A DNA stretch of 32,000 nt, from assembly GCA_042852035.1 (NCBI GenBank), contig BAAFHK010000003.1, forward strand, positions 1 to 32,000, read 5' to 3'. Below are positions 1,597 through 24,604 of this stretch, in pieces. The DNA is from Candidatus Saccharimonadota bacterium. Its GTDB lineage: Bacteria; Patescibacteriota; Gracilibacteria; BD1-5; UBA2023. Position numbers and translations under genes: made by a program. The stretch's first letter is position 1, and each line of letters opens with the position of its first letter. Below the pieces are notes generated by a model. That model was not told where the DNA came from and searched no databases. It saw only the letters and a list, made by a program, of their open reading frames with translations.

Positions 1597-1756
1597 TTCA
1601 CTCTATCCTCCTTCTGCAATTGAAAAATGCATAGCACTCTTTGATGGCTATGATATTTCATTCCATGAAGAATCACAGACTCTTGAGATGCCTGACGATA
1701 ATCAACTCATTTTAGAGTTTTTTAATCATGCACTTCATCTTACCCTCGAAAAATAG
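1568..1756 (+). CDS. 62-aa conserved small protein of the Hxs-like module (copy 1)
   Basis: The ATG at 1568 lies inside the 3' end of the previous CDS (+1 frame, 29-nt overlap), and the stop is TAG 1754..1756. The product is MQKKHLKIDSSLYPPSAIEKCIALFDGYDISF...LILEFFNHALHLTLEK. A paralog at 20767..20961 has the same MQKK start, the same 29-nt overlap and a similar size. Confidence 0.5.
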   Translation: MQKKHLKIDSSLYPPSAIEKCIALFDGYDISFHEESQTLEMPDDNQLILEFFNHALHLTLEK

Positions 1757-1760
1757 CATC

Positions 1761-3221
1761 ATGACTCATCAAACCCTCACCCTCGATCTCGCAAAAAACC
1801 CACATAAGGATGTTGCATATTTTCGCTTTCGAAAGGAAGAGGATGGAAAATATCTCATGACAACTGATAATGGCCAGTTCACCATGCTCAATGGGGAAGA
1901 TTTTATAACACTACTCGAAACATGACGTGTCCCTCTCGAAGTGAAATATAAAGAATTATGTGAAAAGTGATTTATAAAAAGCGTCACGAACTATACTGAT
2001 GTTGAAACTCGCAATTATGCTCAAAGAAATAGCTTTCTGAATACTGGACCAGCTCTACATATGATTATTACTACCCTACGATGTAATCATAAGTGTAAGT
2101 ACTGTCATGCTGCCGTTGCTCCAATGACAGCAAAAGAGCTCGACATGAGCGTCGAAACGGCAAAGAAGGTCGTTGACACCATATTTTATACTACCAATCC
2201 TTCTATAACTATAGAATTCCAGTGAGGTGAATCACTCGTAAATTGGGATGTAGTAACTTTTGTCGTGGAATATTCCCAAAAAAAAGCAAAAATTCATAAT
2301 AAGCAGCTCTATCTCACTCTCGTGACAAACCTCTCCCTCATGACGGAGGAAAAATTACAATATCTAGTAAAAAATAGGGTTTGAGTCTGTACCTCTATGG
2401 ATGGCGATAAGGAAACTCATAACTGGCAGAGAACCTTTAAAGATGGAGACTCCTATGAGCTAGTAAACTATTGGATAAAACGAGCAAACGCTCTCTATAA
2501 GGAACACTGATCAACATATAGAGTTTGAGCTCTCCTTACGCTTACAAAGCCAGCGTTGGCTCATTATAAAAAAATTATTGACGCTTACGTCGATCTTTGA
2601 TTGTGATCTGTTTGACTCAGATGGCTTAATCCATACGGATTTGCAGCTGCTGAAAGGGAAAAATTTTATTTCGACACGGATGAATTTATCACATTTTTTC
2701 GCGATGCGATGGACTACATCATCGAAATTAATAAAAAATGATACCGCCTTCGAGAAATGCTTTCCTGAGTATACCTGACAAAAATACTCACCTGACAAGA
2801 TCCGAATTTTATGGATATCAGATCCCCGTCTTGACCAGCAATTGGCTGCCTCGCGTACAATTATGATGGATCCGTCTATGCTTCTGATGAATCTCGGATG
2901 CTTGCAAGAATGGGAATAAACGACTTCTGCCTGACACCTATGCTTGATTCCCCTGAAGAAACATACAAGGCCATCACCGAATCACCGGTCACAAATATCC
3001 TTATTCAGACAAGCACTCTAGATTGACTTCCTGGATATAACGATCACGTATATAAACCCTATATTGGAGCTGACACTCTTTTTTCTTTTACTCAATCGTG
3101 AAATCCATACTCTATTTTTTCAAAAGATGAAAGAAATGTGATGCAATTAGCACGACTCGATTATTTATTTGAAAAAATGTGAGATGAAACTATAATGGAA
3201 ATCTTTAGAAAATGGATTTAA
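1761..3221 (+). CDS. hxsB: HxsB-like radical SAM peptide maturase (copy 1)
   Basis: ATG 1761, TAA 3219..3221, 486 aa once many in-frame TGA are read as Gly. Motifs: LRCNHKCKYCHAA (Cx3Cx2C); IEFQ-G-GESLVNW with the first Gly encoded by TGA 2223..2225; VTNLSL; CTSMDGDKETHN; WLNPYGFA; AYNYDGSVYASDESRMLARMG. There is no complete Cx2Cx5Cx3C SPASM motif. It is highly similar to 19311..20759. The HxsB assignment is from memory of the family plus the HxsD-like and His-rich peptide neighbours. Confidence 0.75.
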
Positions 3222-3235
3222 TTACTCCCTACTAT

Positions 3236-3601
3236 ATGAAGAAAAAAATCCCACAACTCAAGAAAAAGCTTCATGGATTCATTACGAATGAAGACTGATC
3301 TATTCGACGTGAATCTATGGTGAAACTCTCCGTATGATGAGCTATGCTCCTCTGATGAGCTTCTGCTCTTCCTGATTCAGCAAATGCAGGACATTCAAAT
3401 GGGTATATTTCCTGCGCTCCAACTGGAAACACTCCAGCGATTAATGCAAGTATTGGTGTAAATACCTCCATAAATCTCAATGGTCACTTTAATGGAGTTT
3501 GATCATCCACACATGCCAATTACGGACACTGAAATTATAGTACCGCATGTTGGCAAAACATTCATGGATCTCACGGAAGCTGTGGATGATGATGTTGGTA
3601 A
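3236..3601 (+). CDS. precursor peptide A1 (HxsA-like; His/Asn/Gly/Ser-rich core with Cys-rich C-terminus)
   Basis: ATG 3236 is 14 nt after the hxsB-like stop, and the stop is TAA 3599..3601. 121 aa with 9 in-frame TGA by my count. Leader: MKKKIPQLKKKLHGFITNEDGSIRRESMVKLSVGGAMLLGGASALPDSANA. Core: GHSNGYISCAPTGNTPAINASIGVNTSINLNGHFNGVGSSTHANYGHGNYSTACWQNIHGSHGSCGGGCW. The leader and core motifs (VNTS, NGH[FY]N, GHGN) recur in 15444..15944. Confidence 0.6.
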
Positions 3602-3619: not shown

Positions 3620-4585
3620 ATGAATCGATACCTCGCTCTTTTTCTATTTTTCGTTTCTCCGATAATCCTTCTCTCTTCATGTACATGAATTGGATTTAAA
3701 AGTGGGAAAGTAAGTTGGAGTGATGCTCAGAATTCCAGTACTACCTATTCTTCGAAGATTGGGTGACTCTTCAAGAAAGCTCTTGATGATCCACATACAA
3801 AACAAATTGCCGAGAGAATGTATACCGATTACTCTGCTGGGATTATTACTGAGAGTTTTTTTTATACCGCGCTTACTTACCTCAACGATAAACCATCACT
3901 TCCTTCATTTCTCGAGAACTACAAAAAAAATAAGTGAGTATTTTGAGAAGAATCTTCTGATACAGCATCGGATTATATCGGTGGATACATTTTTGCTTAT
4001 GCTTGAGTAAAGACTAGTGAATGTACGGAATACACAAATGCCCTAAGTGGAACATTTGTCGGGAAAAGAATTCATGAAGGATGCATCGATTCAACCCTTT
4101 TGTATAATGTACTGGGCGAAAAAAATGAAAAAACAATTGATATATTTAAAAAATCTTGAGATTTAAAAATTAACGAAAGCCTCTTTCGTTCTATTGCAAA
4201 AGGAGAAACAAAAGACTGTTGAAGTTGCTCCGTTATTATTGAATGAGCTGACCGAGAGAAAACATTTGGCGAGATATCAAATCTTCAAAAATCAGATTTA
4301 AAAGGAAAAACTGTTAATTTTAGCTTAAAGAATTTTAATATTCTTGCACTTAAGAGCGAAATTAAGCCAAACATGTCTGATAGGGAGAAGTTTGATCTCA
4401 CATACGATAGCTTCTTACTCTATAATGCCATTTATAAATCGGATACCTCGACATGTAAGAAGCTTCTAAATGAAACACTCTCAAGTACTTGCATAAAATA
4501 TATCGAAAAGGATCGTACTCAAAAACAAGAATATACAAATTATATTGAACCATATATCATCTACAGCTACCTCTACGAACTCTAA
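3620..4585 (+). CDS. lipoprotein, function unknown
   Basis: ATG 3620. The N-terminus MNRYLALFLFFVSPIILLSSC carries a lipobox (L-S-S-C). The frame stays open, reading TGA as Gly, through to the TAA at 4583..4585 and includes track ORF 4373..4585. 321 aa. The C-terminal part contains a C-x11-C pair (CKKLLNETLSSTC). Confidence 0.6.
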
Positions 4586-5732
4586 GAAATGTCTCTACAT
4601 TCATATTCCCTTTTGTCCGACAGGATGTAAGTTCTGCCATTTCTATCTGGATGAGAAAAAATCATCCGAGAATTATATTGGTTATCTAGAGAAGGAATTT
4701 CTCTTGCGGTTTTGAGATGAAAGGGTTTTTATCGATACGATTCACATAGGTTGATGAACTCCAAATATGCTATCACAAAAAGAATTGGAGAGTCTTTTTG
4801 TTTTCATTCATAAAAGGTTTTATTGATGGAGGGAGTTTTCCATGGAGCTTCACACCGATCTCCTGACATTTCCACAGCTCGATAGCCTAAAAAATGGCTG
4901 AGTTACTCGAATCTCCTTCTGAATTCAAACATTTGATGCTGAAATACTCAAACTTCATGCACGCGTCTCTAAGAATTATGAAAAACTCTGATCCTATATC
5001 GAATATGCGAAAGAAATCGGATTTGAGAAGATAAATTTTGATCTTATTTATGACCTTATCGGGGATTCTCCTGATAAAATTCGGAAAAATATCGAATTCG
5101 TAAAACAATATCAACCAACGAGCGTGAACTATTACTGACTCAGGCTCCTTACAGACTTTCTTCGGGAAAATCATACTATGAATTACAAACGAAGACTTGC
5201 CTATTACCTTCTCATCCGAGAAGAGCTTACGAAAATCTGATACATCCAGAAAAACGATGCTATTTACCATAAACCTTGATTCGAAAATGGAAGAAACTTC
5301 TTGTATGAAGATTATGTCTACTCTAAGTCCCATACAATCTATGGTTTAGGTGTTTCAGCAACGAGTGATAATAACGAAAGATTCGCGAAGAATGTTATCT
5401 CACTTGAGAAATACAAGAACCTTCTCGACAATAATGAGTCAACACAGGATTTCCATTTTAGCCTAAGTGAGAAACCTTATCTCCTCTATAGACTTTATTA
5501 TTGGCTACTTATGTATCCTACGATGAGTTTTGCAGACTATGAAGCTGAATACTGAACTGGAACTATTCTAAAAATAAAAGAAGATATGTCGCGCCTTGAG
5601 GGTGAGGGTCTTGTAAAGATTGAAGATAGCTCTATACGATTAACCCAGAAATGACTCTTCTACTTCATGGGTCTTGAAGATATTCTTATGAAGGACTATA
5701 CTTACGAGCTCTCACTTCTAAGAAAATTATAA
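4545..5732 (+). CDS. HemN/HemW-like radical SAM enzyme (coproporphyrinogen-III-oxidase family; possible class C radical SAM methyltransferase)
   Basis: CLYIHIPFCPTGCKFCHFY from 4590; IHIG-G-G-TP with TGA TGA at 4752..4757; RISFGIQTFD; INFDLIYDLIGDS; stop TAA 5730..5732. Track ORF 5301..5555 is an internal piece. The start is uncertain: the only canonical in-frame start upstream of the cluster motif is TTG 4545, which overlaps the previous CDS by 41 nt. Confidence 0.75.
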
Positions 5733-5774: not shown

Positions 5775-6701
5775 ATGTGACCTTGAGATCTTCACATATT
5801 CTCTCTAAAAAAAGGAGCTATTATCAAAATCATTTACTGATGTAATCATAAATGTAGCTTTTGTCATGAAAAAGACAACATAGCATCGCTTGATTTTCGT
5901 TCCCTGAAGATTGAGAATCTCCAAGATATATATACATGGATACATTCAAATGGTTTTGATTATATTATACTATCTTGATGAGAGCCAACACTCCACCCTC
6001 ATTTAGTTGATTTTATAGTATTTTTTCAAGAAAAGGGCATTTATGTGGTAGTCGTCAATAATGGGACTCACCTTCATAAACACGATTTCTCAAAGGTAAA
6101 TAAAGATAAAATTACTTTTTATATATCTTATCACGGACAAAAGGAATATTACAATGATATTACAGGAAGTCATGACTTTGATATTGTAACTAAAAACATA
6201 AAAATGCTCGCTGAAAGATTTCCAGAAGTTATCCTTAGGTGTGTCCTAAATTATAAAAACCTTGAATCTATAGAAGATTTCACTCTTGAAGCTTTGAGCC
6301 TGAGCCCTTCGGTTTACCTAGAGTTTATCCTTCCTGAAGATTTGAAATATGAGCATGTAAATAAAGTCTCTATTCCTCTCAAAGAGTACCATGTTTTGGT
6401 TCTTAAATACCTCAAAAATAAACGAATACTTTTTGATGGATGAGCTGGGTGTTTCCATCCAAAGATATTCGAAATATTGGAAACACGTTTTGATCCATTA
6501 GTAAACACAATGATTGGACGAGTCAAAAAAGATAAAACTGGTCTCTTATTTAATATAAAGACTCAGGACTCTGAACATAATATCAAAAGCTTTTGGAAAA
6601 AATGCTCCCAATGCAAAAAGAAATCTTTTTGTCATTGATTTGATATTCTCTATTTGCAAAAATTTAGTAAAAATATCCCCATTGAGGATGGGAAAGTCTA
6701 A
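5775..6701 (+). CDS. radical SAM enzyme
   Basis: ATG 5775 gives MGPGDLHIFSLKKGAIIKIIYGCNHKCSFCHE (Cx3Cx2C). ILS-G-G-EPTLHP has both Gly encoded by TGA TGA. The C-terminus reads CSQCKKKSFCHG. Stop TAA 6699..6701, 308 aa. Track ORF 6045..6443 is an internal fragment in the same frame. Confidence 0.75.
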
Positions 6702-6933: not shown

Positions 6934-7992
6934 ATGATCCCCAACCTCTTTTTCGCCATCAATGAAGACTGTAATCTCGATTGTACGTACTGTAACGTCA
7001 AAAAGTCGAAACAAAAACTCTCTCTAGAAAAAATCATAGAATGAGTCCTTTATTTTATTAAGTTTTTTCCGGAAGCTACAGGATACAACATCTTTTTTAC
7101 CTGAGGAGAACCCCTTCTCTCTTTTCGGGAAATTGTATCTGCTACTTACTTTTTGAAGAAACTTGAGAAAAAAATCGGAAGAAGTTTCTCGATTCATATA
7201 CCCACGAATGGCACACTCCTCACTGATGAACGTATAGCATTTTTTGTAAAAAATAATATTACCATTTCTTTAAGTATCGATAGTCTAGATATAGCGTATT
7301 CGGAACGTCCCTTTGTGTGAAAATCCCTAGTTCCATCCCAAAGTGTTATTGCAAAAATTTTCCCGAACATAAAAAAATACGCAAATATATTTCGAATAAA
7401 AATGGTTGCAACTCCTCAGGAAGTTCCATCTATAGAGCGGACATTCTGAGAATTCTACCAACTCTGATTCCGATTTATCAATATCCAACCTGCTCATGGA
7501 GTTTATTGGTCAAAGGAAGCTCAAGACAGCTATATCGAAACTCTACTTTCCCTCAGAAAGAATCTTGAAAATTTCCCCTGACTGGAATCAACAACCCTCA
7601 AAAAATCAGGTTCACATACTCACACCATGAAACGATGTGCAAAATGAATCTCTGAAATATGCATCGATAGCTATGGGAATATTCTTACCTGTGATGCCTT
7701 TCTTGCATATAGTCCCGATATAAGAAAGTCTTTTGCATTTGATTCACTTGAAAAACCTGGATTTGATAGAGAAAAATTTCGAAAAGGTTCCGACTGGAAA
7801 TACTGTCAGAATGAAATCATTGCGCATGTTGATGGAACTATAGATTATGATCTTACCCACTGCAAAACCTGTAATGAATCGATCTCTTGTACAAAGCTCT
7901 GTAATGCTGTCCCCATAAACGGTCAAGAACTCGATAGTACTATACTTCTATCAAACTTTGAATTATTTCGTAGAATAGATTCACTTATCTAA
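6934..7992 (+). CDS. radical SAM/SPASM-domain peptide-modifying enzyme
   Basis: ATG 6934 gives MIPNLFFAINEDCNLDCTYCN. FFT-G-GEPLLS has TGA at 7102..7104. Also IPTNGTLL and ISLSIDS. The C-terminal CAKGISEICIDSYGNILTCD plus CKTCNESISCTKLC (Cx2Cx5Cx3C) is a SPASM signature. Stop TAA 7990..7992, 352 aa. Track ORF 7317..7568 is an out-of-frame shadow. Confidence 0.8.
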
Positions 7993-7993
7993 T

Positions 7994-8980
7994 ATGGATT
8001 TTGCCTATTTTCAAGTTGTACGCATCTGTAACCAAAAATGCATCTTTTGTGCTCAACCATCGAATGGAAGAATTGAGTCGCTCAAAAAAATACAAGAAAG
8101 GATTGACTGGTATAAGGACCAATGATATGAGTGAATTATCCTCAACGGCGGAGAACCAACCCTTCATAAAGAGATTGTTAACATCATTAAGTATACCGCA
8201 CAAAAGTGAATATATTCAAAAATGATATCGAATGGGATAAATTTTTCAAATGCTGAACTTGCCAAGGCTTGTGTTGATGCCTGACTCAAGCAGATTCACA
8301 TATCATTCCACAGCTATATACCAGAAGTTGAAAATAACCTCATGAGATGAGATGTTTATGAAAAGCAGCTCAAATGACTCCTCAACATGCTTCTCCATAA
8401 AAACAAGATCGATGTCTGGGTGAATATTGTTATGAACCAGTACACAATACGTCATTTAGATAAAACTGTACTTTTTTTTCTCAAACTCTGAGTGCGAAAT
8501 TTTGTTATTAATAATCTAGAAGTCACTTGAGTATATCCAGAATATTTAGAGAAATTACTGTTTCGCTTGAAAGAAGCTGAAGAGCCCCTCAAAAAGGCAC
8601 TCCATCTTATCCGAAAATATGGAAACATCGCGCGCGTCTCGCGTATCCCCATGTGCTATCTACGATGATTTGAAGACTATTCACGAGATATCGAGTATTA
8701 TATCCTCCATACAAAAAAATATATTCATTACCTGAATGATGATAAACACCCCAAGCAATCCGATTTCGTAAGCGATGAAGTAAGTTGGCAAAGTGGTGAA
8801 GGATCGCCTACTTGAATGAGACGTTCTCGAACCGAAAATTGTAGTCATTGTGATCTTCGTCATATGTGCTCCTGATATGATCTGCTTGATTTTTTCCCAG
8901 GTGAAGACCCTCTTATTCGACAGAAAGTTGATAATGAAGAAATGCAGACTATACTGAACAACATCTTATGAAAAAAATAG
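7994..8980 (+). CDS. radical SAM enzyme, possibly HxsC-like (tandem paralog 1)
   Basis: ATG 7994 is one nt after the previous stop. Motifs: VRICNQKCIFCAQPSNG; ILNGGEPTLH; ISFHSY; C-terminal ENCSHCDLRHMCSG. Stop TAG 8978..8980, 328 aa. The CxxxCxFCAQP context recalls the CxxxCxMCSQPP of HxsC (from memory, unverified). Confidence 0.7.
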
Positions 8981-9924
8981 CATACCTTCAACTTCATAGA
9001 ATCTGCGATCAAGAGTGCGTTTTTTGTGCCCAACCCTCGAATGGATCAGTACTCGATTTCAAAGCCATAAAGAAACAAATAGATGCTTTTGTTCAAGATG
9101 GTTACTCAAAGGTTATTTTTTCTTGAGGAGAACCAAGTCTCAATAAAGATTTTTTTGAAGTTATTGCGTACGGTAAAAGTCTCGGCATCGAAATGACCAT
9201 TCTCTCAAATGGTCATCGATTTTCGGAGTATGATTTCGCAAAAAAATCCGTCGAATCATGACTTCTACAGTACCATATATCCCTCCATTCACATATATCA
9301 GATATACACGACGCCTTAGTAAAAAAACCATGATCCCTGAAACGATGTTTTCAAGCGCTTCATCATCTACTATCACTCTCTGCGCACATCACAATAAATA
9401 TAACGATTAATGCTTATAATGTATCCTATTTTGATAGGCTTATTAAAGCTATCCTCAAAGAATTCCCTTCTATTCATGGATTTATTATCAATAACCTTGA
9501 AACCTCTCAGATTCCTCGAGAGCATTATAGTGTTATAGCAAAACTTTCGGAGATAAAAAAAACCATTCCGAATACCCTTCAAATTTTAGAAAATTCTGGT
9601 AAAAAATTCCGTATAGAAAGGGTTCCTTTCTGCTATATTCGATGATACGAGCATCATTCTACCGATCTTGAGTACGTCATCGACGGGGAAGAAAAATTTC
9701 TTCACTATCTCTGAGAGTCAAGAGCGTCTCACAAGGTAAAAAAAGAAAACTACGTTCATAACTCCAAATATGGCGAATCATGCTCAGCATGTGATCTAAA
9801 ATGACTCTGTGCTGGTCAGGAAGGTCTCAATATCCACTACTTTCCCGAAGAGCTTATTCCACAGACCGTAAGTGAAGCTGAGAAAAAACAAATTATTCAA
9901 AAATTCTATGAATGTTATTGTTAA
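8968..9924 (+). CDS. radical SAM enzyme, possibly HxsC-like (tandem paralog 2)
   Basis: ATG 8968 overlaps the previous CDS by 13 nt. Motifs: HRICDQECVFCAQPSNG; IFS-G-GEPSL (first Gly is TGA); ISLHSH; ERVPFCYIRGYE (compare RIPMCYLRGFE in the paralog); SCSACDLKGLCAG. Stop TAA 9922..9924, 318 aa. Confidence 0.7.
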
Positions 9925-11434
9925 CATCTCATGAGATACCTGAACGAATACACCTCCAAAAATTGCAAGACTTCTGGAGCTTTGAGAGACCTTCCCTATT
10001 CCGAAAAGTATTTATTTCCCTCTCTCTTATATTTCGGACATGGATGATATTCTTCATGCGTACGAAACACTCATTCATGAAGAGAAATATATCGTGCGTT
10101 CAGCGGATAAAACTGAAGATGGAGATCATAAAAGTTATGCCGGAGTATATCTAACAAAAACAAATAAGTATTCCAAGAAGAACCTGAGAAATGATATTCT
10201 TTCAGTAGCTCTGGGACTGTCAGAAGGAGGCTTTATACTTATCCAAGAATATATTGAGGCAGATTTTTCATGAATATACTTTGGAAACATTGGTTATGAG
10301 AGGAGTTGAATTGAGTATATTGCTGGATGAAATGAATTATTAACAAACTGAAGTGAAGTTGGATCAAGTATAATCTTCGATAAAAATGGGAAGCAAATCG
10401 TAAGTGAGGTTCAATATCAAGATTCGATACTTAAAAACTCTCTTCAAAAAGAGGACTTTTGTTCTTATGCAAATATTCGCATGAGTGAAAGAGAAGCGAT
10501 AAAAGATACCCTCTTCAATCTAAAAACCACTTCCTGAAATAATATAGATGTGGAATGGGCTATAAAAAATGGTCGAGTGTACATACTCCAAATTCGTTCA
10601 ATCACAAAACCTCTCGCTTTACCTCAGGATAGAGTAGACAAAAATAACCTCATAAAACCCTTTCGAGAAATTCTCGGGAAATGCGCTTTCATGCAGATAT
10701 TTTTTCGGGAACTATGATTTGAATCTTCGAGTATTATCTATGATATGGGATGAGGACTTCTCTATTGTGGAGTCTTTGGGAACAATGCCCAACAAGAACA
10801 ATTAGTCCAGATTATCAATTCAGACAAGCTCTACATCCTCTTAGATCGTGAAGATCCTCAATATGAGAAAATATTTCAAGAAAATGAGCGAAATGAACTC
10901 CGGTTCAAAGACCAGCGACTCGAAAGTTTGTTTGAAAAATATAGAAAAGATACTGGCATAGCAATCTTTCTCGCACGACTTCGAGTACATTCTGACCTGA
11001 GTCTCTTTTGTGACTTTAGGTATCCTTGACTTTTTTTTCTCAAACAGGAAAAAACTTTTTCAAGTTTACTCGAAGAAAAAAATAAAAGCGAATGAACTCT
11101 CTCTCTAGGACTAGGAGATGAGATTCCTTTTTCGTCATCACATAACCTTGAATCTCTCGAGGAGAGAGAATTGAGTGTAACAAAAAATATACAAGTCACA
11201 TGATTCGAGAATTCTGTATTCGTTGGATTTGATATACGCGACTATAAAGTTCATCCAAATATAAAACTTCTCCTTTTGGAACGATCAAGTCATCTTTCAC
11301 ATGGTGCGATACTCGCCCGAGAAATTGGTATACCCTGCATATATGGAGTAAAATGAATTACATCTCATCTCAAATTATGACAGAGACTGGTAATTGACAA
11401 AATTAATTATAATATTAAAATATGTAAATACTAA
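9908..11434 (+). CDS. PEP-utilising-enzyme-like phosphotransferase (PPDK_N ATP-grasp domain + swivel phosphohistidine domain, no TIM-barrel domain)
   Basis: ATG 9908 overlaps the previous CDS by 17 nt. The N-terminus is MNVIVNISGDTGTNTPPKIARLLELGETFPIPK (GGK..L..G.P-type). IVRSADKTEDGDHKSYAGVYLT and DVEWAIKNGRVYILQIRSIT match PEP synthase / PPDK / rifampin-phosphotransferase ATP-grasp motifs. The C-terminal LLERSSHLSHGAILAREIGIPCIYGV is the mobile His domain. I translated codon by codon from 10262 to TAA 11432..11434 and found no TAA or TAG. 508 aa. Confidence 0.7.
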
Positions 11435-11449
11435 CTTAGTAATTGGGGT

Positions 11450-13090
11450 ATGAATCAACTATCAAGAAAATACACTCTCAGTGAAGAGATTTGAGAGTTT
11501 GATACATGAAAGAACCTCAAATGAGCTCCTTCTACAAGATTTCAGGTAGCCGCCCTTCTCGATGAATCTCAACAACGAATGAATGGGCATGCAACTCAAG
11601 AGATTTTAGACATGACTCCTCCAACTGTGCTCATCGCTGAATATGCCAGAGCAAAGTGAGTACTCAAGATTCAACATAATGGAAGGATTATTGAAATTCC
11701 CGGAGGAGAAATATGAGGTGATGAAATAGTTTATTTGAGTCAAAAAGCAATAGAAGTATCACCATGAATAAATGAATGGCTTCGTGAAAATCCAGACTGT
11801 ATAAGAATTGAGTGAGAGTATCTCGTAGCGATTCACTTACCTGAAGGAGGAAAACGGTGAGGATTCTTTGATATTGTTATGAAAGAATTTTCTTCTACAG
11901 CAACCTCTCCACTGAAGCACGACATCGTTGAGCTCCATCTATGAGCCTGAGACTCAAAATTTTCCACCGTTATGGAGTGAGTCACTCCAAGTATGTTAGG
12001 AAAAATGCTGCGAAGAAAATTTAACATCGGAAATAATCCTAACTGGCAAAGCGAGCGAACACGAGAAAATCATGAGCGTCATTATGAGAAACTTCTTTGA
12101 ATCCCCGGAATAAAACCTCCTCAAATCTATCTCACTCTTTCAGGAAAATCAGCTAATACTGCGGTAATTCGTGATGTTTCAAAGAGTACCCCACCAAACA
12201 CCCTAACTGTATATCCTGGTTATTTTTTTCTGAATGAACCCGATTTCCCAGAGGGTACAAAAAATACGATTCATGATACCACTCAGTGATTTTTTGCATC
12301 TGTAGAATCTTGATATGCAGGAATCCAAAAGGAAGAGTATGATGCATGACTTTTAGAAGCGGTGAGAAAAATGATTAATCTCGCCTCAAGAAACACAGGA
12401 ACTTCATATTCTATATCTCTTGATGTCACTTCTGATATTCTGTCTTTCCAAAAAAGTGAACTCTGACAACTCATTCAAAAAGCCCTTAAACTGCAAAATC
12501 TTCGGGTTATTATTACGAGCAGTCTGACGAAATATAATCGAAATGAACCGAACTATCATTTTGGAATTATTGCTGATTTTTCATGAGAAGACCCCCTCTC
12601 TCTTGATGTCCTTGTAGAAACATCATATGGCTGACTCTCACCACTTTGAATCCTCCAATACCCTCGTCTTAAGAAAAATGAACTTGAGTGACTCAAATCC
12701 CAATCACAAAAATCCTGAGAGGCTTTTCTCTCATGATTCAAGCAGGCTGTATGAGATATATGAAATGGGATTATAGAGATTGAATCTTATACCCCCTATA
12801 GCTATATTCGATTCCCGTGACTCCCCGAAGATAAACGAAATAGACTCGTAAGTGAATTTCTCAAAGAGAGAGCTATACGCCCCTATGTAGGAAGTTCATT
12901 TTACCTCGAAGACTTCCGGATATGCGATGTCCCCGATGTGAATTGTTCACGTTTCTGAACAAGTAGTGATCGTAGCTTTCGTAATAATATTCGAGTGAGT
13001 TTCCCAACTTGAGATAAAGACGCGGCAAAAATGGGATTACTGGTGGGAGAAAAAATCAGAAATCTACTACAAGAAGCCACTTTTTCATAG
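11450..13090 (+). CDS. PLP-dependent-enzyme-like protein (fold type I, Cys/Met-metabolism-like motifs)
   Basis: ATG 11450, TAG 13088..13090, 546 aa, open only with TGA = Gly. Motifs: LTLSGKSANTAVI; RVIITSSLTKYNRNEPNYHFGII (S-x-T-K lysine motif); C-terminal NNIRVSFPTGDKD (compare RLSVGLED). The functional call is motif-level only. Confidence 0.5.
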
Positions 13091-13145: not shown

Positions 13146-15392
13146 ATGCCAAATCTTATTATTCGGGAAGAGGAATTCTCTTGAGTTCCTTCGACGATTA
13201 GTTTCCCCCAACTCGTTCTAATACTCAGTTTTCTCAAGAAAAGATGAGAGAATCAGATTCGAATCTGCTGAGTCCATCCACTCAAACATCCAGAAGTAAA
13301 GAAGATTGTTGAAGTAATTCGGCGAGGAGGATTCGATTCAACCTTTGTTCTTTCATCCGAAGAAATAAAACAATGCATATTTCCTGAGAATATCACTCAG
13401 GCTGAGATTATTGTTCACGATATCAACTCCCTTCGTGCTGAGGATATAAAAATCATTAAAAATACGACCGAAAATATCCTTCTTGAATTCGAAGTTCCAG
13501 CAGAAAAAGATACCTATAAAAAAATTATTAATTTCTGTGAAAGTACAGAAATTCGAGATATTCGATACCGAGTACATCATCCTGAATTTTGAGAGAAAGA
13601 GATTTCTACACTTCCAGAAGAAAGGATAAACTCTCTATTTGAACATATTGTTACTTATAAAAATTCCTTCAACATTTCCCTGAATTGTGGAATCAGTAGA
13701 GACTTATTTTCTTCATCCCAAAAAGAAAAATTGTCTCAAATTTCATACTTTTGGAATGAAGGATGCTCTGGGTATGTTTGAAGGTATGATATCTATCCAA
13801 ATGGCGAAATAAAAAAATGTAAGCCCCTTAAAAAACTCTATGGGATTGATGGACTCAGACTCGAAAATTTTGATTCTGAAAATGATCTCTTCTTGGCTAT
13901 TGATATTGAGGAAAGTACTTCAGGTTGCATTACAGAAAAGCCCTATCCAACAAAAGACGAAATGCCGTTCGATAATTATCCATGATTTTATGAAGAAGAT
14001 AATCGAAAAAATCGTCACGTCCTACGAACGACCAAGGAACTTATAGAAAAAAAGAATACCGTCGTTCTTCCACCAGAACTTGTTCGAGGAAAGTCTGTTC
14101 TTGATCTTGGATCTTGTATATGAGCGATGTGACAGTGGGCACTCTTTTATGGGGCCAAGTCATATACCTGAGTAGAAATTCAAGAATCGTATGCAAAAAC
14201 ATCCAGAAAACTCCTCGCTCACCACGGTGACAAAGTAAGAATCATACAAAGCAGTCTCGAGAAATTTCTTTCAACGAATACAGAAAAATTTGATATCGTA
14301 CTTTGTCTCTGAGTGATTTATGTTGCGATTGACTACTATTCGATACTGAGAAAAATCTCTGAAATATGTAACGATTTTACGGTTATCGAGTCATTCTACC
14401 CAGATAACAGACTCCTCGACACTAATGTACCATGAGTACTCTTTGTAAATGACCATGGGATTAATCTTTCGACTCATAATGCTTCTCTCATGTGAAGATG
14501 AAGTCATATTAGTCCAAGTGGCCTTGATTTTCTCATGTCATGACTCTGAATGACTTCAGAGTGAGACATCCTACAACCAATGAAGATCTATCAGTGAATC
14601 GATTCCTATAGAATCCGATGAGTATGAAGGTACATGAAACGTTATCATCAAGGGAAACAAAAAAGTCTCCCTTCTCTTTCTGAGAAACTCGAACATGGGA
14701 TTATTGATAGAATCAAGCCTTGGGAAATGATGCAAAACTGACTCGAACCTAAAGAAGTAAGTGGACCATGGGAATTTGGCAATAAAATTGCGCATAATTT
14801 TTTCGATCACGCAAAGAATCATATCCCAAATTATGAAAAAACCATAGATCTCTGCCTACAGATTGTCCAAAAATACCTCCCAAATAGAAGTTCAAGAATT
14901 CTTGAATTTTGAAGCGCAATTTGATATACCCTTGAGAAATTTGAAAGGGCAGGATACAGAAATATTCTTTGAATCGAAAAGTCAGAGTCGATGTATAACC
15001 AAAGTACAATGAAAGAACATGTACGAGTACGAGATACCTTAATAGATGAAGATGGTCTATTTTCTGCTATTTTAGCGAATTGGACACTTCATTTTATCGA
15101 GGAACGTGAACCTATCATACAATCATTTTACAATCATCTTGAAGTAGGATGAATCCTTATAATTACAGATAAGGTGTCCTCGTCTGGACTCTCACACGAA
15201 CTGTATATGGATTTTAAACGATCTAATTGACTTTCAGAAGATGAGATTCAAACAAAAACAAAGTCTCTTAAAGGAGTGCTCTTCCCATTCGATATTACTT
15301 GGTATTTTACTACCCTGAAGAAAATAGGATTCTCAAGCATCGATATCATCACGGCAAGTCCATCTTTTGTAACATTTCTCATACAGAAATAG
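13146..15392 (+). CDS. three-domain fusion: radical-SAM/SPASM-like domain lacking Cx3Cx2C + CmoB-like methyltransferase domain + CmoA-like (carboxy-SAM synthase family) domain
   Basis: ATG 13146, TAG 15390..15392, 748 aa in one frame. The N-terminal ~290 aa has radical-SAM-like strands (IRICGVHPLKHPEV..) and a twitch/SPASM-like NEGCSGYVGRYDIYPNGEIKKC, but no CxxxCxxC. The middle domain reads KSVLDLGSCI-G-AM-G (TGA at 14121 and 14130), ...FDIVLCLGVIYVA, compare CmoB TILDVGCGSGYH...FDTVFSMGVLYH. The C-terminal domain reads PWEFGNKIAHNFFDHAKNHIPNYEK...RILEF-G-SAI-G-YTL...NWTLHFIEE...GGILIITDK...[22 protein letters not shown], compare E. coli CmoA [24 protein letters not shown]...VYDLGCSLGAATL...NFTLQFLEP...GGALVLSEK...[22 protein letters not shown]. 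Confidence 0.65.
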
Positions 15393-15398
15393 AAATTC

Positions 15399-15426
15399 TT
15401 GATATTCTCATTTTTTAAAATATAAT
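15399..15426 (+). promoter_or_regulatory. near-consensus sigma70-type promoter directly upstream of precursor A2
   Basis: TTGATA (15399..15404), a 16-nt spacer, then TATAAT (15421..15426). The ATG at 15444 lies 18 nt downstream of the -10 box. The element sits in the 51-nt gap after the fusion CDS. Confidence 0.4.
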
Positions 15427-15443
15427 CCCCTAAATATTTCTAT

Positions 15444-15944
15444 ATGGAAAAAAAAGGAATCATCCCAAAGTTCAAAAAGAAACTTACCGCCTTCCTTACT
15501 GAAGAAGCCGGAAGTATTCGTAGAGAAGATATCCTCACCATCGGTGCGGCTACTCTTCTCGTAGCATGAGGACTTTCAGATCAGGCAAATGCCTATCTCA
15601 CTCTTGGTGACTGTCATACTAACCATAATAATTTCGTAAGTACATCAGATGGTTATACTCATTCGAGTGGATGGGTCCATTCAAACACGACTCCTGCGCC
15701 TCTCTGTATGCATGAGAACTACACAACCCCATCTGCCTGAGGACATGGAAATGCAGTAGCGGTAAATACCTCAACTGCCTGATCTGATAATAAAATCGTA
15801 AACTGACACTATAATCAGATTCCAAGCGCTGGAGCATCACACGTAAATCGTTGACATGCGAACGTAAACCCAGTATACTATGTTGCTCACAATGACGGAT
15901 ACGTTTATCATAGCAGTCATGCGAATCATTCGGATGGTGGTTAA
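15444..15944 (+). CDS. precursor peptide A2 (HxsA-like His-Xaa-Ser-rich peptide)
   Basis: ATG 15444, TAA 15942..15944, 166 aa with 5 in-frame TGA. Leader: MEKKGIIPKFKKKLTAFLTEEAGSIRREDILTIGAATLLVAGGLSDQANA, homologous to the A1 leader. The core has 13 His, including GYTHSSGWVHSNT and YVYHSSHANHSDGG (His-Ser-Ser / His-Xaa-Ser), and shares the GGHGNAVAVNTST and NGHYN motifs with A1. Confidence 0.65.
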
Positions 15945-17011: not shown

Positions 17012-18109
17012 ATGTCCACTATTCAAAGTTTCCCATACACTATTTGATACAACGATAACAAGGTATTAAATATTTATATAGAAAAATATAAGCAAATTCT
17101 CCACCATCTCGCCCAGAAGCACCTCGATAAAGACATCGCAGCTACTCCTGATATTCTCCAATTTTTATCAATTGGAGATATAGCATCAAACCTTTTATTA
17201 CTCGGGAAGCCTGAACCATGAAATGGCGCTGAGTATGCGAAGAAATTCTTAGAGAAAGAATGGGCGGAGTTTAAAATCGGTGGACTCCAAAATCTTTCGT
17301 CTGTCAAGTGATCAAAGATCCCAGGAACAAATATCCTTCTTACCAACAACGATTATACCCCAGGAGGCGTCGCGAGGATTAATCATCCAAGCCAAAAGGA
17401 TGGAGCTCAACTTACGGGATTTTCTTCGATTGAAGAAAAAGAGTGGCTTAACCTCTATGCTCAGGTTTTTGAAAAAATCCGTGAGATACATCCATGATTT
17501 TATACCGAATTAACAAGCGTCCTACAAAAAGTTGTCCCAATAGGAATATCTCGTGACTGTCATAACTCTGGATCATTCTCGGACTGTATCGGACACATAT
17601 ATATGAGCTACCCGATAGGGAATATTGAACCAGTGATTGCCGTACTTGAGGCAGTTATCCACGAGTACAATCATAATAAACTTCATATTATTATGATGTC
17701 TGATCCATTGATTCTCAACAGTGGTGAAGAAATATACTACTCTCCGTATAGGCCCGATGCGAGACACCTATATGGTATTTATGCGTGACTTCATGCTCTA
17801 TCCGCCGTTTTATATGTTATCTTTACTTGAATTCAAGAAGGCACTCTCACTTCACCAAGTAAGGACCTAATTCTGAAGTCGCTCCTCTACTTCATGAAAG
17901 ATGAGGCGTCAGTTCGGGTCCTAGAAAAATATGGGAAATTCTCCCCTCTCGGACAAGAGCTCCTCAATGAAATGAAAGCGGTACATAAGCATACCCTGGG
18001 AATTATAAAAGAGCTCCGATACGGTCATGAACTCTTAGAAGCTGCTTCTCGAGAATGCAGAAATCACTTCCTTGAAGCACAAAAAAATAACAAAAAAATC
18101 CTATACTAA
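17012..18109 (+). CDS. HExxH-motif domain protein (family of peptide-modifying, aKG-HExxH-type hydroxylase-like proteins)
   Basis: ATG 17012, TAA 18107..18109, 365 aa. The track fragments at 17280, 17603 and 17894 are mostly pieces of this gene or shadows of it. The core reads PVIAVLEAVIHEYNHNKLHIIMMSDPLILNSGEEIYYSPYRPDARHLYGIYAGLHALSAV. That is the HExxH..L...(~20)..SP.R.D.R...G pattern of the HEXXH motif domain found beside radical SAM/SPASM maturases (from memory). Confidence 0.65.
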
Positions 18110-20766: not shown

Positions 20767-20961
20767 TTAGATTAATTTTTCATTATAAAGTGCGACACAG
20801 TAATTTGAAAATTCATCAAACAGTCATTGTGGATCCTCATCCTGAATTGAAATTCCATCTTGAATAGATTGAATATCAAAAGACTCAAATTCAGAGATTG
20901 CTTCTTCCAGAAGGGCTTGAGGATAGAAATTTTTATCGAGATTGAAATTTTTCTTTTGCAT
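20767..20961 (-). CDS. 64-aa conserved small protein of the Hxs-like module (copy 2)
   Basis: ATG 20961 lies inside the end of the HxsD-like CDS (29-nt overlap, other frame), and the stop TAA is at 20767..20769. The product MQKKNFNLDKNFYPQALLEEAISEFESFDIQS...GLFDEFSNYCVALYNEKLI is a paralog of 1568..1756. Confidence 0.5.
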
Positions 20962-21487
20962 TCTTAACTTTATTAGGATCTAACTGAGGGGTTTTCTTTG
21001 TTTGAGTTCCACTCATATCGACTTCAATTTCCTTCAAAATCCGATCTATCTCACCCTGATCAATCTTAAGCTCTGGATCATTTTCAATTTCTTTTAAGAT
21101 TTCATCAATATCCCTATCAAAGTCAATCTGTGGATTTGAATTCGAGATTTGATTTGGAACAAAATTTTGACTATCAACATACGAACCAAGAGCTCGCATA
21201 ACTATAGTTTCTCGAATCGTTTTATTATCTCTTTCAAGTTTATCACGAAGAAGGGTTGCAAGAAGTTCATCACTGTATTCAAGAGCAAACGCCTCACTAC
21301 TCCAACGTTGATTTTCTTTTGGATGAATTTGAACTAGGGTATTCTCCCCATCTCTCTTAAAAAAGAAATAGCATCGATCAAGAAACATATACGCCGCCTT
21401 CATGACGACTGCCTCTGAAAAGATTCCACCATCAATAAGAAGCTCTAGACGATTATTTTCCTGATTTTTTGAAAGAAAAGCAAACAT
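20933..21487 (-). CDS. HxsD-like protein (copy 2)
   Basis: This is an intact 184-aa ORF in the track with no internal TGA. MFAFLSKNQENNRLELLIDGGIFSEAVVMKAAYMFLDRCYFFF...WSSEAFALEYSDELLATLLRDKLERDNKTIRETIVMRAL. It is a paralog of 1096..1596. Confidence 0.65.
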   Translation of the reverse strand: MFAFLSKNQENNRLELLIDGGIFSEAVVMKAAYMFLDRCYFFFKRDGENTLVQIHPKENQRWSSEAFALEYSDELLATLLRDKLERDNKTIRETIVMRALGSYVDSQNFVPNQISNSNPQIDFDRDIDEILKEIENDPELKIDQGEIDRILKEIEVDMSGTQTKKTPQLDPNKVKNAKEKFQSR

Positions 21488-21536: not shown

Positions 21537-22529
21537 TTATTTTACGAATGATTGCTCACAGGAGATTCTAAGACTCTCGTCAACAAGTGATGAACAATCC
21601 GACTTTTTTCAGGACTTAATAATATCTGATATTCTGATTCTATCGAGACAGCTCTGTTTCATCTCTACGGCTTTAATTCTATTACAGAAATCCAATGATT
21701 GTTCTATCATCGCATTTTCAAAGAGACTTGAATCGGAAAGATCACCAATCGTAGTAAGACAGTGCGATTTGGTGTCTGGATTAACGATATTTTCACAGAT
21801 TTCAACATTCTGATTCGATTTCGCTCGAGAAAAATAGACTACATCATTACATTCTTGCTTGAGATCCTCTGTTGAAATATTTCCACAGCTTTCAGTACTC
21901 TGATTTGCAATTGCCTTCTCAAGAATTACTTTATCATTTGAAAGCTTTAAATCTGACTTGCATTGTTCTTTTGCAAGATCATTCGTGAAAGAATCACAAT
22001 CAACCTCTTCACCACTTTCTTCTCTATTATTTCTTATTTTTTCTCGAATGATTCGTATCTCAATCCCCTGAGTACATTTATCACGAGATCATGAGTTCGA
22101 AATTTTCAAACATTCATCAATTTTTCATGAAAGCTGGGCAAGGCGAAAATAAATTTGATCCCTACACTCAATAGCTCCAGTCTCTGAAAGGACATCACAC
22201 TTTGTTGGATCATTTTCTTTTAATGCCAGTGCAAGTCATGATTTCTCGATACATTCTTGCTTAAGTTCTGGTATGGATATTGTTTCGCATAGCGCAGGAT
22301 TAGCATTCAATATGGCAGAGTTTACCCTATCAATTGCTTGGGTAACCATCTGCTGTCTCTCCTCCTCAGTCATAACATGCTCCTGTCATTCTCAATCTTG
22401 TTGTTCACCACCACTGGAGAATCATGGTAACTCTCCTCAATCATCAGGAGATCGAGAGGAGTAGAGATAACCGAAGATTGCTACTCCTGCAATAAGCAGA
22501 AGAGAAATAATAGTATAGGATGTTTTCAT
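21537..22529 (-). CDS. membrane-anchored protein with eight C-x10/11-C repeats
   Basis: ATG 22529, TAA at 21537..21539, 330 aa. The N-terminal MKTSYTIISLLLIAGVAIFGYLY is a TM anchor. Eight Cys pairs follow: CETISIPELKQEC, CDVLSETGAIEC, CLKISNSGSRDKC, CDSFTNDLAKEQC, CGNISTEDLKQEC, CENIVNPDTKSHC, CNRIKAVEMKQSC and CSSLVDESLRISC. The CDS is open only with TGA = Gly. It lies 49 nt upstream of, and on the same strand as, the HxsD-like copy 2. Confidence 0.6.
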
Positions 22530-23783: not shown

Positions 23784-24305
23784 ATGACAAAATTATTCTG
23801 AGTAAATAAAGTAAAAGCTCAGGCACCTTCTGAAACTCACCAAATCAGACATGTGAGCCATGATGATAATAATCATGGGAATCATCACCATCATCATGAA
23901 GATCATGATGATGTAGAAGAAAAGTATGAGGAAATCGATGAAATACACGATCATCATGATGAGGAACATAATGTAGACCTCGGCCAAATAGCTGTAGATG
24001 TTTTAGATCTTACAGATGAAATTATTATTGTAGCTCCAATTGCTTGAGTTGACCCAAGCGATATCGATATTGGTCTTTCACGAAATATTCTCACTCTTTC
24101 ATGAGAACGAAAAACTCCAAGCATCTATATGGACGCTAAAAGGATGCTCGTCGAAGAGTGTTTCTTTTGAGCATTTTCTCGATCAATAATTCTCCCAGAA
24201 AATTTGGCTTTTAATAAAATTCGTGCTACCGTAGAAGAAAATGTAATTATGGTACATGTGCCAAAACTTTCATTTTTTTCAAAGACTATTAAAGTTGAAA
24301 AATAG
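23784..24305 (+). CDS. Hsp20/alpha-crystallin small heat-shock protein with His-rich N-terminal region
   Basis: It shares the frame of track ORF 23853..24047. Upstream ATG at 23784, stop TAG 24303..24305. The alpha-crystallin core reads IAVDVLDLTDEIIIVAPIAGVDPSDIDIGLSRNILTLSGERK...EECFFGAFSRSIILPENLAFNKIRATVEENVIMVHVPK. The N-terminus reads HDDNNHGNHHHHHEDHDD...DHHDEEH. The start is uncertain. Confidence 0.75.
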
Positions 24306-24337: not shown

Positions 24338-24604
24338 ATGTTTTTTAAAAAGAAAGATACCATCCCAGAAGAAAATGTTGCGAAACAAAGTATCAAAAAA
24401 ATGGATCATGTTGTAACTGGCCTTCTTCTTGGTGGAGTTATTGCCTCAATTTATGGGGTAAAGAAACTCCATAATAAATGAAATCATGATGTTCACGAAT
24501 GATGAACTCAAGATGAGAATCATGCTCATGAAGAACATGGCAATCATCAAAGTGATAAAAAGAAGCAGGGCATAGTTTCTCGTCTCTTTTTTGGAAATAA
24601 GTAG
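24338..24604 (+). CDS. small membrane protein with His-rich C-terminal tail
   Basis: ATG 24338, TAG 24602..24604, 88 aa. It has one TM segment (VVTGLLLGGVIASIYGV) followed by HNKGNHDVHEGGTQDENHAHEEHGNHQSD. There are three in-frame TGA. Confidence 0.4.

Follow-up and report, generated by a model that had tools for sequence, protein, structure and literature searches.

A putative separately promoted gene for a divergent HxsA3-class substrate of a His-Xaa-Ser radical SAM system in a bacterium that reads TGA as glycine

The 32,000-nucleotide stretch of contig BAAFHK010000003.1 analysed here (the window) contains two genes, called A1 and A2, for small His-rich proteins that lie among genes for radical S-adenosylmethionine (SAM) enzymes. 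The locus raises the question of what the second of these genes, A2, encodes: whether it is a genuine gene, whether it has a promoter of its own, and which modification system its product would serve. The candidate system is the His-Xaa-Ser (Hxs) system (HxsA/B/C/D; TIGR03976-03979), which was first defined bioinformatically by Haft & Basu 2011 (as cited in PMC9062424). On balance, we favor the reading that A2 has its own promoter and encodes a divergent HxsA3-class substrate of an Hxs radical SAM maturation system in a Gracilibacteria-type (Candidatus Altimarinota) host that uses genetic code 25. The parts of the A2 gene are as follows.

15393-15426, + strand: conserved intergenic block with the putative σ70-type promoter of A2 (-35 element TTGATA at 15399-15404, 16-nt spacer, -10 element TATAAT at 15421-15426)
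15444-15944, + strand: A2 coding sequence, 166 amino acids (aa) under code 25 with five TGA codons read as Gly; predicted divergent HxsA3-family H-x-[N/S/D] repeat precursor
15462-15527, + strand: leader recognition box, aa 7-28 (IPKFKKKLTAFLTEEAGSIRRE), common to A1 and the whole HxsA3 family
15528-15593, + strand: signal-peptide-like part of the leader, a hydrophobic helix at aa 30-44 (ILTIGAATLLVAGGL) followed by SDQ-ANA (AxA site, aa 48-50)
15594-15941, + strand: A2 core, aa 51-166, with 13 H-x-[N/S/D] triplets and 2 Cys, slightly acidic and predicted to be unstructured

For comparison, A2 orthologs were taken from two syntenic metagenome loci, L001 (a Logan contig) and L002 (an activated-sludge contig), and the cluster was also compared with L003, a distant code-25 relative (Patescibacteria metagenome-assembled genome JAVKLJ010000007).

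The reading of A2 depends on the genetic code. When open reading frames (ORFs) were called with table 11, only short ORFs were found across the window, every gene was fragmented, and the A2 frame was interrupted by five in-frame TGA codons. With TGA treated as a sense codon, window ORFs of 100 aa or more summed to 21,602 aa instead of 4,038 aa, and the longest ORF grew from 202 to 757 aa. The invariant glycines in the GGEP motifs of the radical SAM genes in the window are encoded by TGA, and in alignments of 17 ortholog pairs the TGA codons of the window were matched by TGA 69 times, by Gly 67 times, and by Trp once. Within A2 itself, four of the five TGA codons align to GGN in A2 orthologs, and the NCBI protein HHAS10_09780 (Candidatus Altimarinota, Patescibacteria group; annotated as a hypothetical protein) is 100% identical to the code-25 translation of A2. 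Because the gain in ORF length, the GGEP glycines, the alignment of TGA with TGA and Gly in orthologs, and the NCBI translation of A2 all agree, these data demonstrate that the window is read with genetic code 25, in which TGA encodes Gly. Code 4 (TGA = Trp) was rejected on the 67 pairings with Gly against the single one with Trp. Scans for tRNA genes and Rfam families in the window and in L001-L003 gave no matches, hence no tRNA-Gly(UCA) was shown. All statements about proteins below rest on code-25 translations of the window ORFs, which replaced the table 11 calls.

The code also affects how such precursors appear in databases. In 28 of 136 HxsA3-like family members Trp exceeds 5% of residues, and the cases checked in DNA proved to be TGA codons mistranslated with code 4; the Trp residues in entries P0002, P0003, and P0005 were traced in this way, by DNA-level comparison, to translation with the wrong code. 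The standard code hides these precursors and several database entries carry Trp at TGA, which calls for caution in genome mining.

Under code 25, the 166-aa product that the initial annotation had placed at 15444-15944 is encoded by a single ORF. A2-like ORFs in otherwise syntenic clusters, which the annotation had set as a test of its proposal, were found in both L001 and L002, where the A2 orthologs are 67-70% identical to A2. The gene order methyltransferase - A2 - X2 is common to the window, L001, and L002, and the L001 locus then continues as in the window with the HExxH gene, the A24-like gene, HxsB2, and HxsD2. The conservation of A2 matches that of the core enzymes (HxsB2, 75%; HxsC-like proteins, 70-74%) and exceeds that of X2, the HExxH protein, and the methyltransferase (51-57%). 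Between A2 and its orthologs, the proportion of synonymous differences (pS) is 0.64-0.86, such that synonymous differences are saturated, whereas the proportion of nonsynonymous differences (pN) is 0.11-0.26. The resulting ratio of nonsynonymous to synonymous rates (dN/dS) is 0.09-0.13 overall, ∼0.04 in the leader, and ∼0.19 in the core, and the columns that are invariant across the three loci number 34 of 50 in the leader and 59 of 115 in the core. These values agree with the division into a conserved leader and a more variable core that had been expected from the sequence of A2, and they indicate that A2 is a real gene under purifying selection.

A spurious ORF or pseudogene would be a chance open stretch in AT-rich DNA that contains five TGA stops, and the table 11 frame, which breaks A2 at those five codons, is what speaks for it. 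Against this stand the code-25 reading demonstrated for the window, the purifying selection on the A2 frame, the existence of orthologs and of a family of 138 clusters (see below), and the annotation of the same protein by NCBI. We give this explanation practically no weight and count it as refuted. An antisense ORF at 15072-15929 (- strand; 285 aa, 10 of its codons TGA) overlaps A2 as well as the last part of the methyltransferase gene. It was rejected as a gene, being an artefact of scarce stop codons in a region where the selection analysis backs the A2 frame.

The closest catalogued family of A2 is HxsA3. The NCBIfam model NF038309 (His-Xaa-Ser repeat protein HxsA3) matched A2 with E = 7.6e-11 (41.7 bits) over profile positions 2-74 of 81, and A1 with E = 3.3e-5 (23.6 bits). 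When a profile that combined A1 and A2 with both A2 orthologs was searched against 1.84 billion cluster representatives, 138 clusters were recovered at E <= 1e-3, all of them small proteins (43-306 aa) that match from their N terminus; 136 of the 141 retrieved sequences themselves match NF038309, with a best E-value of 4e-35. The same profile matched five proteins at E <= 0.01 in a collection of 5.8 billion proteins, namely A2, its two orthologs (70% and 67%), A1, and one A1-like protein. Because the 164-aa protein P0006 carries the A2-specific core motifs CHTN, THSN-PAP, and INGHYN-P, the A2-like subtype extends beyond the three orthologs.

From these matches, A2 is best described as a divergent member of the catalogued HxsA3 family and not as a new precursor class. 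Like other HxsA3 proteins, it has an N-terminal box, a hydrophobic segment, a small-x-small site, and a His-x-Ser/Asn-rich core with a (V/I)NGHY motif, and its gene adjoins HxsB and HxsD genes in a neighborhood that is the same in L001 and L003. It differs from them in being longer than most members, in lacking the C-terminal (HGS)n...GGWC tail of the A1-like and L003 proteins (A2 ends in ...HSDGG), and in its TGA = Gly encoding. Within HxsA3, A2 is set apart by its Asn-dominated triplets, long acidic core, composite leader, expanded enzyme cluster, and code-25 host.

The count of 13 His residues given earlier was confirmed, all of them after residue 50, and the quoted core motifs THSSG, VHSNT, and YHSSHANHSDGG are all present. 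The core length needs a small correction, from 115 aa to 116 aa (aa 51-166) if the protein is cut after ANA. Every core His has Asn, Ser, or Asp at position +2: 13 of 13 in A2, 15 of 15 and 13 of 13 in its orthologs, and 6 of 6 in A1. With a background of 0.27-0.28 for Asn, Ser, and Asp together, the permutation p value for this +2 pattern is < 1e-5 for each A2 sequence and 2.5e-4 for A1. The A2 triplets comprise 9 with Asn, 2 with Ser, and 2 with Asp, whereas the family-wide frequencies at the +2 position are 57% Ser, 27% Asn, and 3% Asp (combined background, 28%), which appears to place A2 at the Asn-rich extreme of the family. A2 is thereby closer to a His-x-Asn than to a His-x-Ser protein, which amends its earlier description as His-Xaa-Ser-rich.

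None of the 13 His columns varies among the three A2 orthologs, compared with an invariant fraction of 51% for core columns overall, and the +2 residue varies in 7 of the 13 columns, solely within Asn, Ser, and Asp. The +1 residue, by contrast, varies among unlike residues (T/N, A/G, H/N/Y, and A/S/V). Because His is invariant, the +2 residue is exchanged only within this set, and the +1 residue is free, selection acts on the triplet H-x-[N/S/D]. The core contains 2 Lys and Arg residues and 6 Asp and Glu residues, for a net charge of -3 at pH 7. In the AlphaFold2 model, the core has a predicted local distance difference test score (pLDDT) of ∼50 and is without secondary structure (the whole model is of low confidence, with a mean pLDDT of 58.6); the model is thus consistent with the unstructured core expected of an enzyme-modified peptide substrate. 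A Pfam scan of A2 found no domain, a peptidoglycan-binding domain included.

The leader of A2 (aa 1-50) combines two elements. In a family alignment of 141 sequences, Pro-8, Lys-12, Phe-17, and Glu-21 of A2 fall in columns that are at least 90% conserved, and an F-x-x-x-E motif is present in 127 of 136 family members. This box is followed by the hydrophobic 15-mer ILTIGAATLLVAGGL, which has a mean Kyte-Doolittle hydropathy of 2.08, and the AlphaFold2 helix at aa 27-43 (pLDDT ∼93) is the sole confidently modelled element of A2. The same arrangement is found across the family: in all 127 members tested, a hydrophobic 12-mer lies 12-22 aa after the Phe, in 125 of these 127 it is followed by a small-x-small site, and the first His lies a median of 9 residues past the hydrophobic segment. 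By inspection of its sequence, the A2 leader holds an n-region with 8 Lys/Arg residues that is unusually long (∼29 aa), an h-region (ILTIGAATLLVAGGL), and a c-region (ANA). [quoted passage not shown] A Tat signal, which might be read into 'SIRRE', was rejected; the RR pair is not conserved and most family members have 'GKITKKD' instead.

The second part of the question concerns the promoter. The element TTGATA-16-TATAAT that had been proposed for A2 is present exactly at 15399-15426 and matches the consensus at 11 of 12 positions. It cannot be called the best promoter of the cluster, as it had been, since it ties at 11/12 with the sites at 3169 (upstream of A1), 11394, and 15851. Promoter-like sites are not enriched in the window (79 versus 71.5 ± 9.6 expected), and matches of at least 11/12 number 4 against 1.6 ± 1.3 expected. 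The A2 promoter stands out from chance because it is conserved across loci, not because of the consensus match itself. Over the 34 positions that run from the methyltransferase stop codon through the -10 element, the window, L001, and L002 agree at 28, among them 12 of 12 hexamer positions, and the 16-nt spacing is kept. Invariant positions number only 3 of 17 between the -10 element and the A2 ATG, where L001 has a 6-nt deletion, and 6 of 18 among the third positions of codons when the first 54 nt of A2 are compared. The alignment of the three upstream regions is unambiguous, and synonymous sites are saturated in the genes that flank the block. This pattern corresponds to the footprint expected of a functional promoter, and the identity of hexamers and spacing in three loci indicates that the near-consensus element upstream of A2 is under selection; we regard it as the strongest support for the claim that A2 has a promoter of its own. 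Promoter-like elements of at least 10/12 are also found upstream of A1 (3169-3196) and of the second L003 precursor, where the element has the same TATAAT-CCC-TAAA continuation as that of A2. The 3' part of A2 itself contains, 86 nt upstream of X2, another promoter-like site (15851-15879; TTGACA-17-TATACT, 11/12), which neither L001 nor L002 keeps and which is probably a chance match.

The A2 transcript would have a 5' untranslated region of ∼4-11 nt without a Shine-Dalgarno sequence. Such a start is normal here, because a Shine-Dalgarno-like motif precedes only 3 of 30 window genes. A TATAAT also lies 0-20 nt upstream of the ATG in several genes (13146, 15965, 20933 on the minus strand, and 23784). 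The sequence suggests that this organism commonly makes mRNAs with a very short leader or none. No terminator-like site was found in the 20-nt gap between A2 and X2, and A2 is probably transcribed together with X2 and the HExxH gene as a unit.

The third part of the question is which enzymes would act on A2. The genes of the surrounding cluster are listed in order.

1096-1596, + strand: HxsD1 (TIGR03976, 47 bits; cutoff 50)
1728-3221, + strand: HxsB1 (TIGR03978, 446.7 bits; cutoff 370)
3236-3601, + strand: A1, 121-aa paralogous precursor (NCBI HHAS10_09680), directly after HxsD1-HxsB1, with TTGAAA-16-TATAAT at 3169-3196
3620-4585, + strand: X1, unknown protein with a lipoprotein-type signal
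4767-5732, + strand: HemN/HemW-like radical SAM homolog fragment, matched by family profiles only from about position 100 on
5775-6701 and 6934-7992, + strand: radical SAM genes (Pfam Radical_SAM), the latter SPASM/PapB-like
7994-8980 and 8968-9924, + strand: HxsC-like radical SAM genes (TIGR03977 HxsC, 83 and 104 bits; Pfam Radical_SAM)
9908-11434, + strand: phosphoenolpyruvate (PEP)-utilising/PPDK_N-like enzyme (ATP-grasp-like), syntenic in L001 and L002
11450-13090, + strand: unknown 546-aa protein, syntenic in L001 and L002
13146-15392, + strand: 748-aa double class-I methyltransferase that ends 51 nt before A2, syntenic in L001 and L002
15965-16978, + strand: X2, orphan 337-aa protein with an N-terminal transmembrane/signal segment, 20 nt downstream of A2
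17012-18109, + strand: α-ketoglutarate (αKG)-HExxH-type peptide β-hydroxylase (TIGR04267, 62.1 bits; cutoff 40), third gene of the apparent A2 sub-operon, conserved in L001
18106-19305, - strand: Peptidase_A24 (prepilin-peptidase-like) membrane protein (PF01478, 27.3 bits; cutoff 26.5), between the hydroxylase and HxsB2, conserved in L001
19311-20759, - strand: HxsB2 (TIGR03978, 447.2 bits; cutoff 370), 75% identical to its L001 ortholog
20933-21487, - strand: HxsD2 (TIGR03976, 65.2 bits; cutoff 50), 65% identical to its L001 ortholog

The HxsB2/HxsD2 pair lies 3.4 kb downstream of A2 on the opposite strand. X2 has orthologs at the same place in L001 and L002 (51-52% identity) but no match in Pfam, NCBIfam, or PADLOC, and only one homolog was found for it among 5.8 billion proteins. 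By BLASTP, X1, X2, and a Cys-rich protein at 21537-22529 show no mutual similarity.

The homology of A1 and A2 that had been proposed is borne out by BLASTP (E = 2e-14, 34% identity), with leaders that are collinear nearly motif for motif and core motifs (GHGN, VNTS, and NGH[FY]N) in common. The separation of about 12 kb was also confirmed (11.8 kb from the end of A1 at 3601). Together with the orthologs and the selection on the gene, this similarity supports A2 as an A1 paralog that genuinely encodes a second precursor or substrate. The assumption of one enzyme set for both precursors did not stand, since the cluster has two HxsB/HxsD pairs and A2 heads an apparent sub-operon of its own. HxsB1 and HxsB2 are 55.9% identical, and HxsD1 and HxsD2 39.7%. 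An A1 ortholog was not found in the L001 locus within flanks of up to 10 kb, where the left end of L001 is unlike the window.

L003 has one HxsB/HxsD pair, which is closer to the second pair of the window (62% identity to HxsB2 and 60% to HxsD2), and two HxsA3-type precursors of 133 and 136 aa (3987-4388 and 9962-10372). The first of these directly follows HxsD-HxsB, and the second lies 5.5 kb downstream, beyond more enzyme genes. Both are A1-like, with (HGS)n tails of (HGS)6-7 repeats, and each precedes a gene for a signal- or transmembrane-segment-bearing protein, paralleling A1/X1 and A2/X2. The split two-precursor layout thus recurs in L003, and the strong divergence of A1 and A2 and the second HxsB/HxsD pair are particular to the lineage of the window.

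These observations can be arranged into a model. The conserved σ70-type promoter at 15399-15426 would give rise to a short-leader A2 mRNA that probably runs into X2 and the αKG-HExxH gene. The N-terminal box, IPKFKKKLxxFLTEExGSI, would dock the A2 protein to the HxsB/HxsD machinery and the HxsC-like enzymes, and the unstructured 116-aa core would then be modified at its H-x-[N/S/D] triplets, 13 in number and all invariant. The strict i/i+2 rule points to a coupling of His to the side chain at +2, of the kind known from three-residue His cyclophanes. Tailoring may follow, with β-hydroxylation by the HExxH enzyme and then methylation steps, and the hydrophobic helix and the ANA site would direct export and removal of the leader. 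The mature product, slightly acidic and rich in His and Asn, may act outside the cytoplasm, at the envelope or beyond, and its possible roles include a barrier to phage or competitors and a metal-binding factor. The data above show the gene itself and its family, the triplet rule, the purifying selection, the conservation of the promoter, and the enzyme genes nearby. Docking, modification of the triplets, export, and trimming at the AxA site are steps that we infer by homology, and a His-to-(+2) bridge with β-hydroxylation is put forward as the most economical chemical hypothesis, not as a demonstrated reaction.

The model draws on two known systems. A type-1 Hxs system was shown to be antiphage in 2026 (Nat Commun; PMC13128918), in the sole experimental study of an Hxs system. 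In Escherichia coli, N-terminal processing of HxsA, a +8-Da change in its HxS motif (SHRSS), and export require HxsB, HxsC, and HxsD, and mature HxsA accumulates in the periplasm, sits in the envelope, and blocks the entry of phage DNA, which it binds electrostatically (PMC13128918). The A2 system is similar in having HxsB and HxsD radical SAM maturases, an N-terminal export signal, and repeated H-x-S-type motifs, and the N-terminal processing and export of a modified protein are the closest experimentally supported model for A2. The two differ in several respects. HxsA of E. coli is basic and has a peptidoglycan-binding domain, whereas A2 is without such a domain, its core is acidic and holds 13 triplets, and its leader is a composite of 50 aa. 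A four-gene D-B-C-A module accounts for more than 99% of HXS systems, and 99.7% of systems are found in Pseudomonadota (PMC13128918), whereas the host of the window belongs to the Patescibacteria group and its cluster spans ∼20 kb, about five times larger, with two HxsB/HxsD pairs, distant HxsC-like proteins, and extra enzymes. The order of the module is also different, as the window has HxsD1-HxsB1-A1 with A2 far downstream.

The second comparison is with the triceptides. Radical SAM/SPASM enzymes link His-C2 to X3-Cβ on H-x-x motifs, as do HtkB on H-T-K and HaaB on H-A-A (PMC11499958). In RiPPs, enzymes of the αKG-HExxH type β-hydroxylate the residues His, Asp, Asn, and Gln, and they are most often fused to radical SAM cyclophane synthases (PMC12636437); ChlBH-type fusions, as cited in the same paper, carry αKG-HExxH hydroxylases. 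A2 likewise has repeated aromatic-X-X3 units (H-x-[N/S/D]), SPASM-type radical SAM maturases, and an αKG-HExxH β-hydroxylase in its cluster, and at the sequence level its i/i+2 rule fits the Ω1-X2-X3 logic of three-residue cyclophanes.

Several results weigh against the assignment of A2 to an Hxs system with cyclophane-like chemistry. The score of A2 against NF038309 (41.7 bits) is below the curated cutoff of 65 bits, and His-x-Ser itself accounts for only 2 of the 13 A2 triplets. The cluster has no bona fide HxsC, the best candidates reaching 83-104 bits against a cutoff of 267.9. HxsB1 and HxsB2 match cyclophane-synthase models weakly (E ∼1e-11 to 1e-14), with 37-52 bits for the YhhB, AmcB, XyeB, and GrrM models (cutoffs 310-450), and they match the thioether-type maturase models PapB, CcpM, and SCIFF better; HxsB thus scores so far below the cyclophane-synthase cutoffs that it is not placed in the clade of three-residue cyclophane-forming (3-CyFE) radical SAM/SPASM enzymes. 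The lone measured Hxs modification is +8 Da ('+C -4H'), not the -2 Da of a simple cyclophane (PMC13128918). The pairing of A2 with one HxsB/HxsD set is ambiguous, as the lone L003 pair resembles pair 2 and yet adjoins an A1-like precursor. Finally, with an acidic core and no peptidoglycan-binding domain, the DNA trapping of the E. coli protein is not directly transferable to A2; DNA trapping is not the default here, and surface-shield, metal-binding, and antagonistic roles are equally open.

Three other explanations of A2 were weighed against the reading of a separately promoted HxsA3-class substrate. A2 could encode a classical small RiPP, as the initial annotation had it, whose leader is removed and whose core or fragments are released as a diffusible bioactive peptide, for instance an antimicrobial or a metallophore, with A1 and A2 giving two products of shared enzymes. 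The leader-plus-core layout with its unstructured core would fit this explanation, as would the many tailoring enzymes (radical SAM enzymes, methyltransferases, the HExxH hydroxylase, and the PEP-utilising/ATP-grasp-like enzyme) and the presence of two or more precursors per cluster, which is common in RiPPs and recurs in L003. Even so, a core of 116 aa is long for a RiPP, and the 13 triplets are invariant along the whole of it, which suggests that the entire polypeptide is the product. Family scans of the cluster proteins detected no dedicated RiPP leader protease or ABC exporter, the leader itself has a Sec-type helix and an AxA site, the lone characterised Hxs product is a protein effector (PMC13128918), and two HxsB/HxsD pairs are present in place of one shared set. 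We therefore regard release of a small peptide as unlikely. The case that A2 is a canonical HXS antiphage effector, which matures in the envelope and blocks phage DNA electrostatically as E. coli HxsA does, draws on the shared HxsB/HxsD machinery and His-x-Ser/Asn repeats, the export-type N terminus, and the HXS defence demonstrated in E. coli (PMC13128918). It is a poor fit to a core with 2 Lys and Arg against 6 Asp and Glu, to the lack of a peptidoglycan-binding domain or any other Pfam match, and to a gene order and content far from the D-B-C-A module of a system otherwise nearly confined to Pseudomonadota (PMC13128918). A PADLOC scan returned only generic matches of radical SAM proteins to viperin and no defence system, with a 2023 library that has no HXS model. 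We consider such an effector distinctly improbable.

A further alternative is that A2 is an unmodified, secreted or membrane-anchored His-rich protein that binds Zn, Ni, or Cu, with the radical SAM enzymes acting on A1 or on other substrates. His makes up 11% of its core, in which Asn and Asp are also abundant, neighboring proteins have His-rich segments (the HSP20 N terminus and the product of 24338-24604), and one family member weakly matches ZnuA. An ordinary signal peptide, however, would not need the leader box that A2 shares with A1 and 127 of 136 HxsA3 members and that evolves in a leader with a dN/dS of 0.04; simple metal binding would not need the strict +2 rule for Asn, Ser, or Asp; and A2 keeps its fixed place, methyltransferase - A2 - X2/HExxH, in all three loci. 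This alternative is very unlikely in our view. The preferred reading, that A2 encodes a divergent HxsA3-class substrate transcribed from its own promoter, can be carried further only tentatively. It is conceivable, if doubtful, that each of the 13 triplets becomes a His-centred macrocycle or bridged unit by the action of the Hxs radical SAM enzymes and is then β-hydroxylated by the αKG-HExxH enzyme and methylated, to yield an undescribed, exported, acidic 'poly-triplet' protein of an episymbiotic bacterium that binds metal or shields the surface, unlike the DNA-trapping HxsA, and that A1 and A2, with their own HxsB/HxsD pairs, lead to two distinct products.

The A2 locus is informative in several ways. 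The HxsA3 family is catalogued and a type-1 relative has a demonstrated function, against which the product and function of A2 are predictions. Hxs chemistry is still unsolved; the lone experimental study found the +8-Da change, with the structure undefined, in one E. coli protein. Evolutionary evidence for H-x-[N/S/D] as the conserved unit narrows the chemistry to what the side chains of Asn, Ser, and Asp share. The two-part HxsA3 leader, a recognition box and then an export signal, offers a model for the coupling of modification to secretion. Moreover, the Hxs genes occur here in Patescibacteria with reduced genomes and TGA = Gly, in which at least 7 radical-SAM-type genes together with hydroxylase and methyltransferase genes are a large investment.

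Some minor observations concern the leader and its possible protease. The F-x-x-[DE]-E motif of HxsA3 leaders loosely recalls the +1 Phe and +5 Glu of prepilins, and the link of the A24-like protein to A2 is uncertain; that this prepilin-peptidase-like protein is the A2 leader protease is speculative. Two points are against it: the -1 residue is Gly in only about one-quarter of family members, and a pilin-like gene is nearby. That type IV pilin-like gene, at 30681-31913 (+ strand), 11 kb off, has the N_methyl motif KHG|FTLFE and would be an ordinary substrate for the A24-like protein.

Other observations concern neighboring genes. The HemN/HemW-like copy at 4767-5732 lacks the CxxxCxxC cluster-binding N terminus, which is present in a 436-aa L003 homolog (11101-12411); the copy in the window may have been truncated or split, or may be a pseudo-enzyme. 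An HSP20 protein at 23784-24305, 77% identical to its counterpart in L001, has a His/Asp-rich N-terminal extension (HVSHDDNNHGNHHHHHEDHDD), and the small transmembrane protein beside it (24338-24604) has a His-rich tail; a link of these two to metal handling near the cluster is possible. At the left edge of the window, 2-931 (- strand) encodes part of a secreted protein with a signal peptide and internal repeats of ∼40 residues, in which KTSPVISANNTSAAWRNANISITLSASDATSGLNAATVKY occurs twice, and its product is probably a surface protein.

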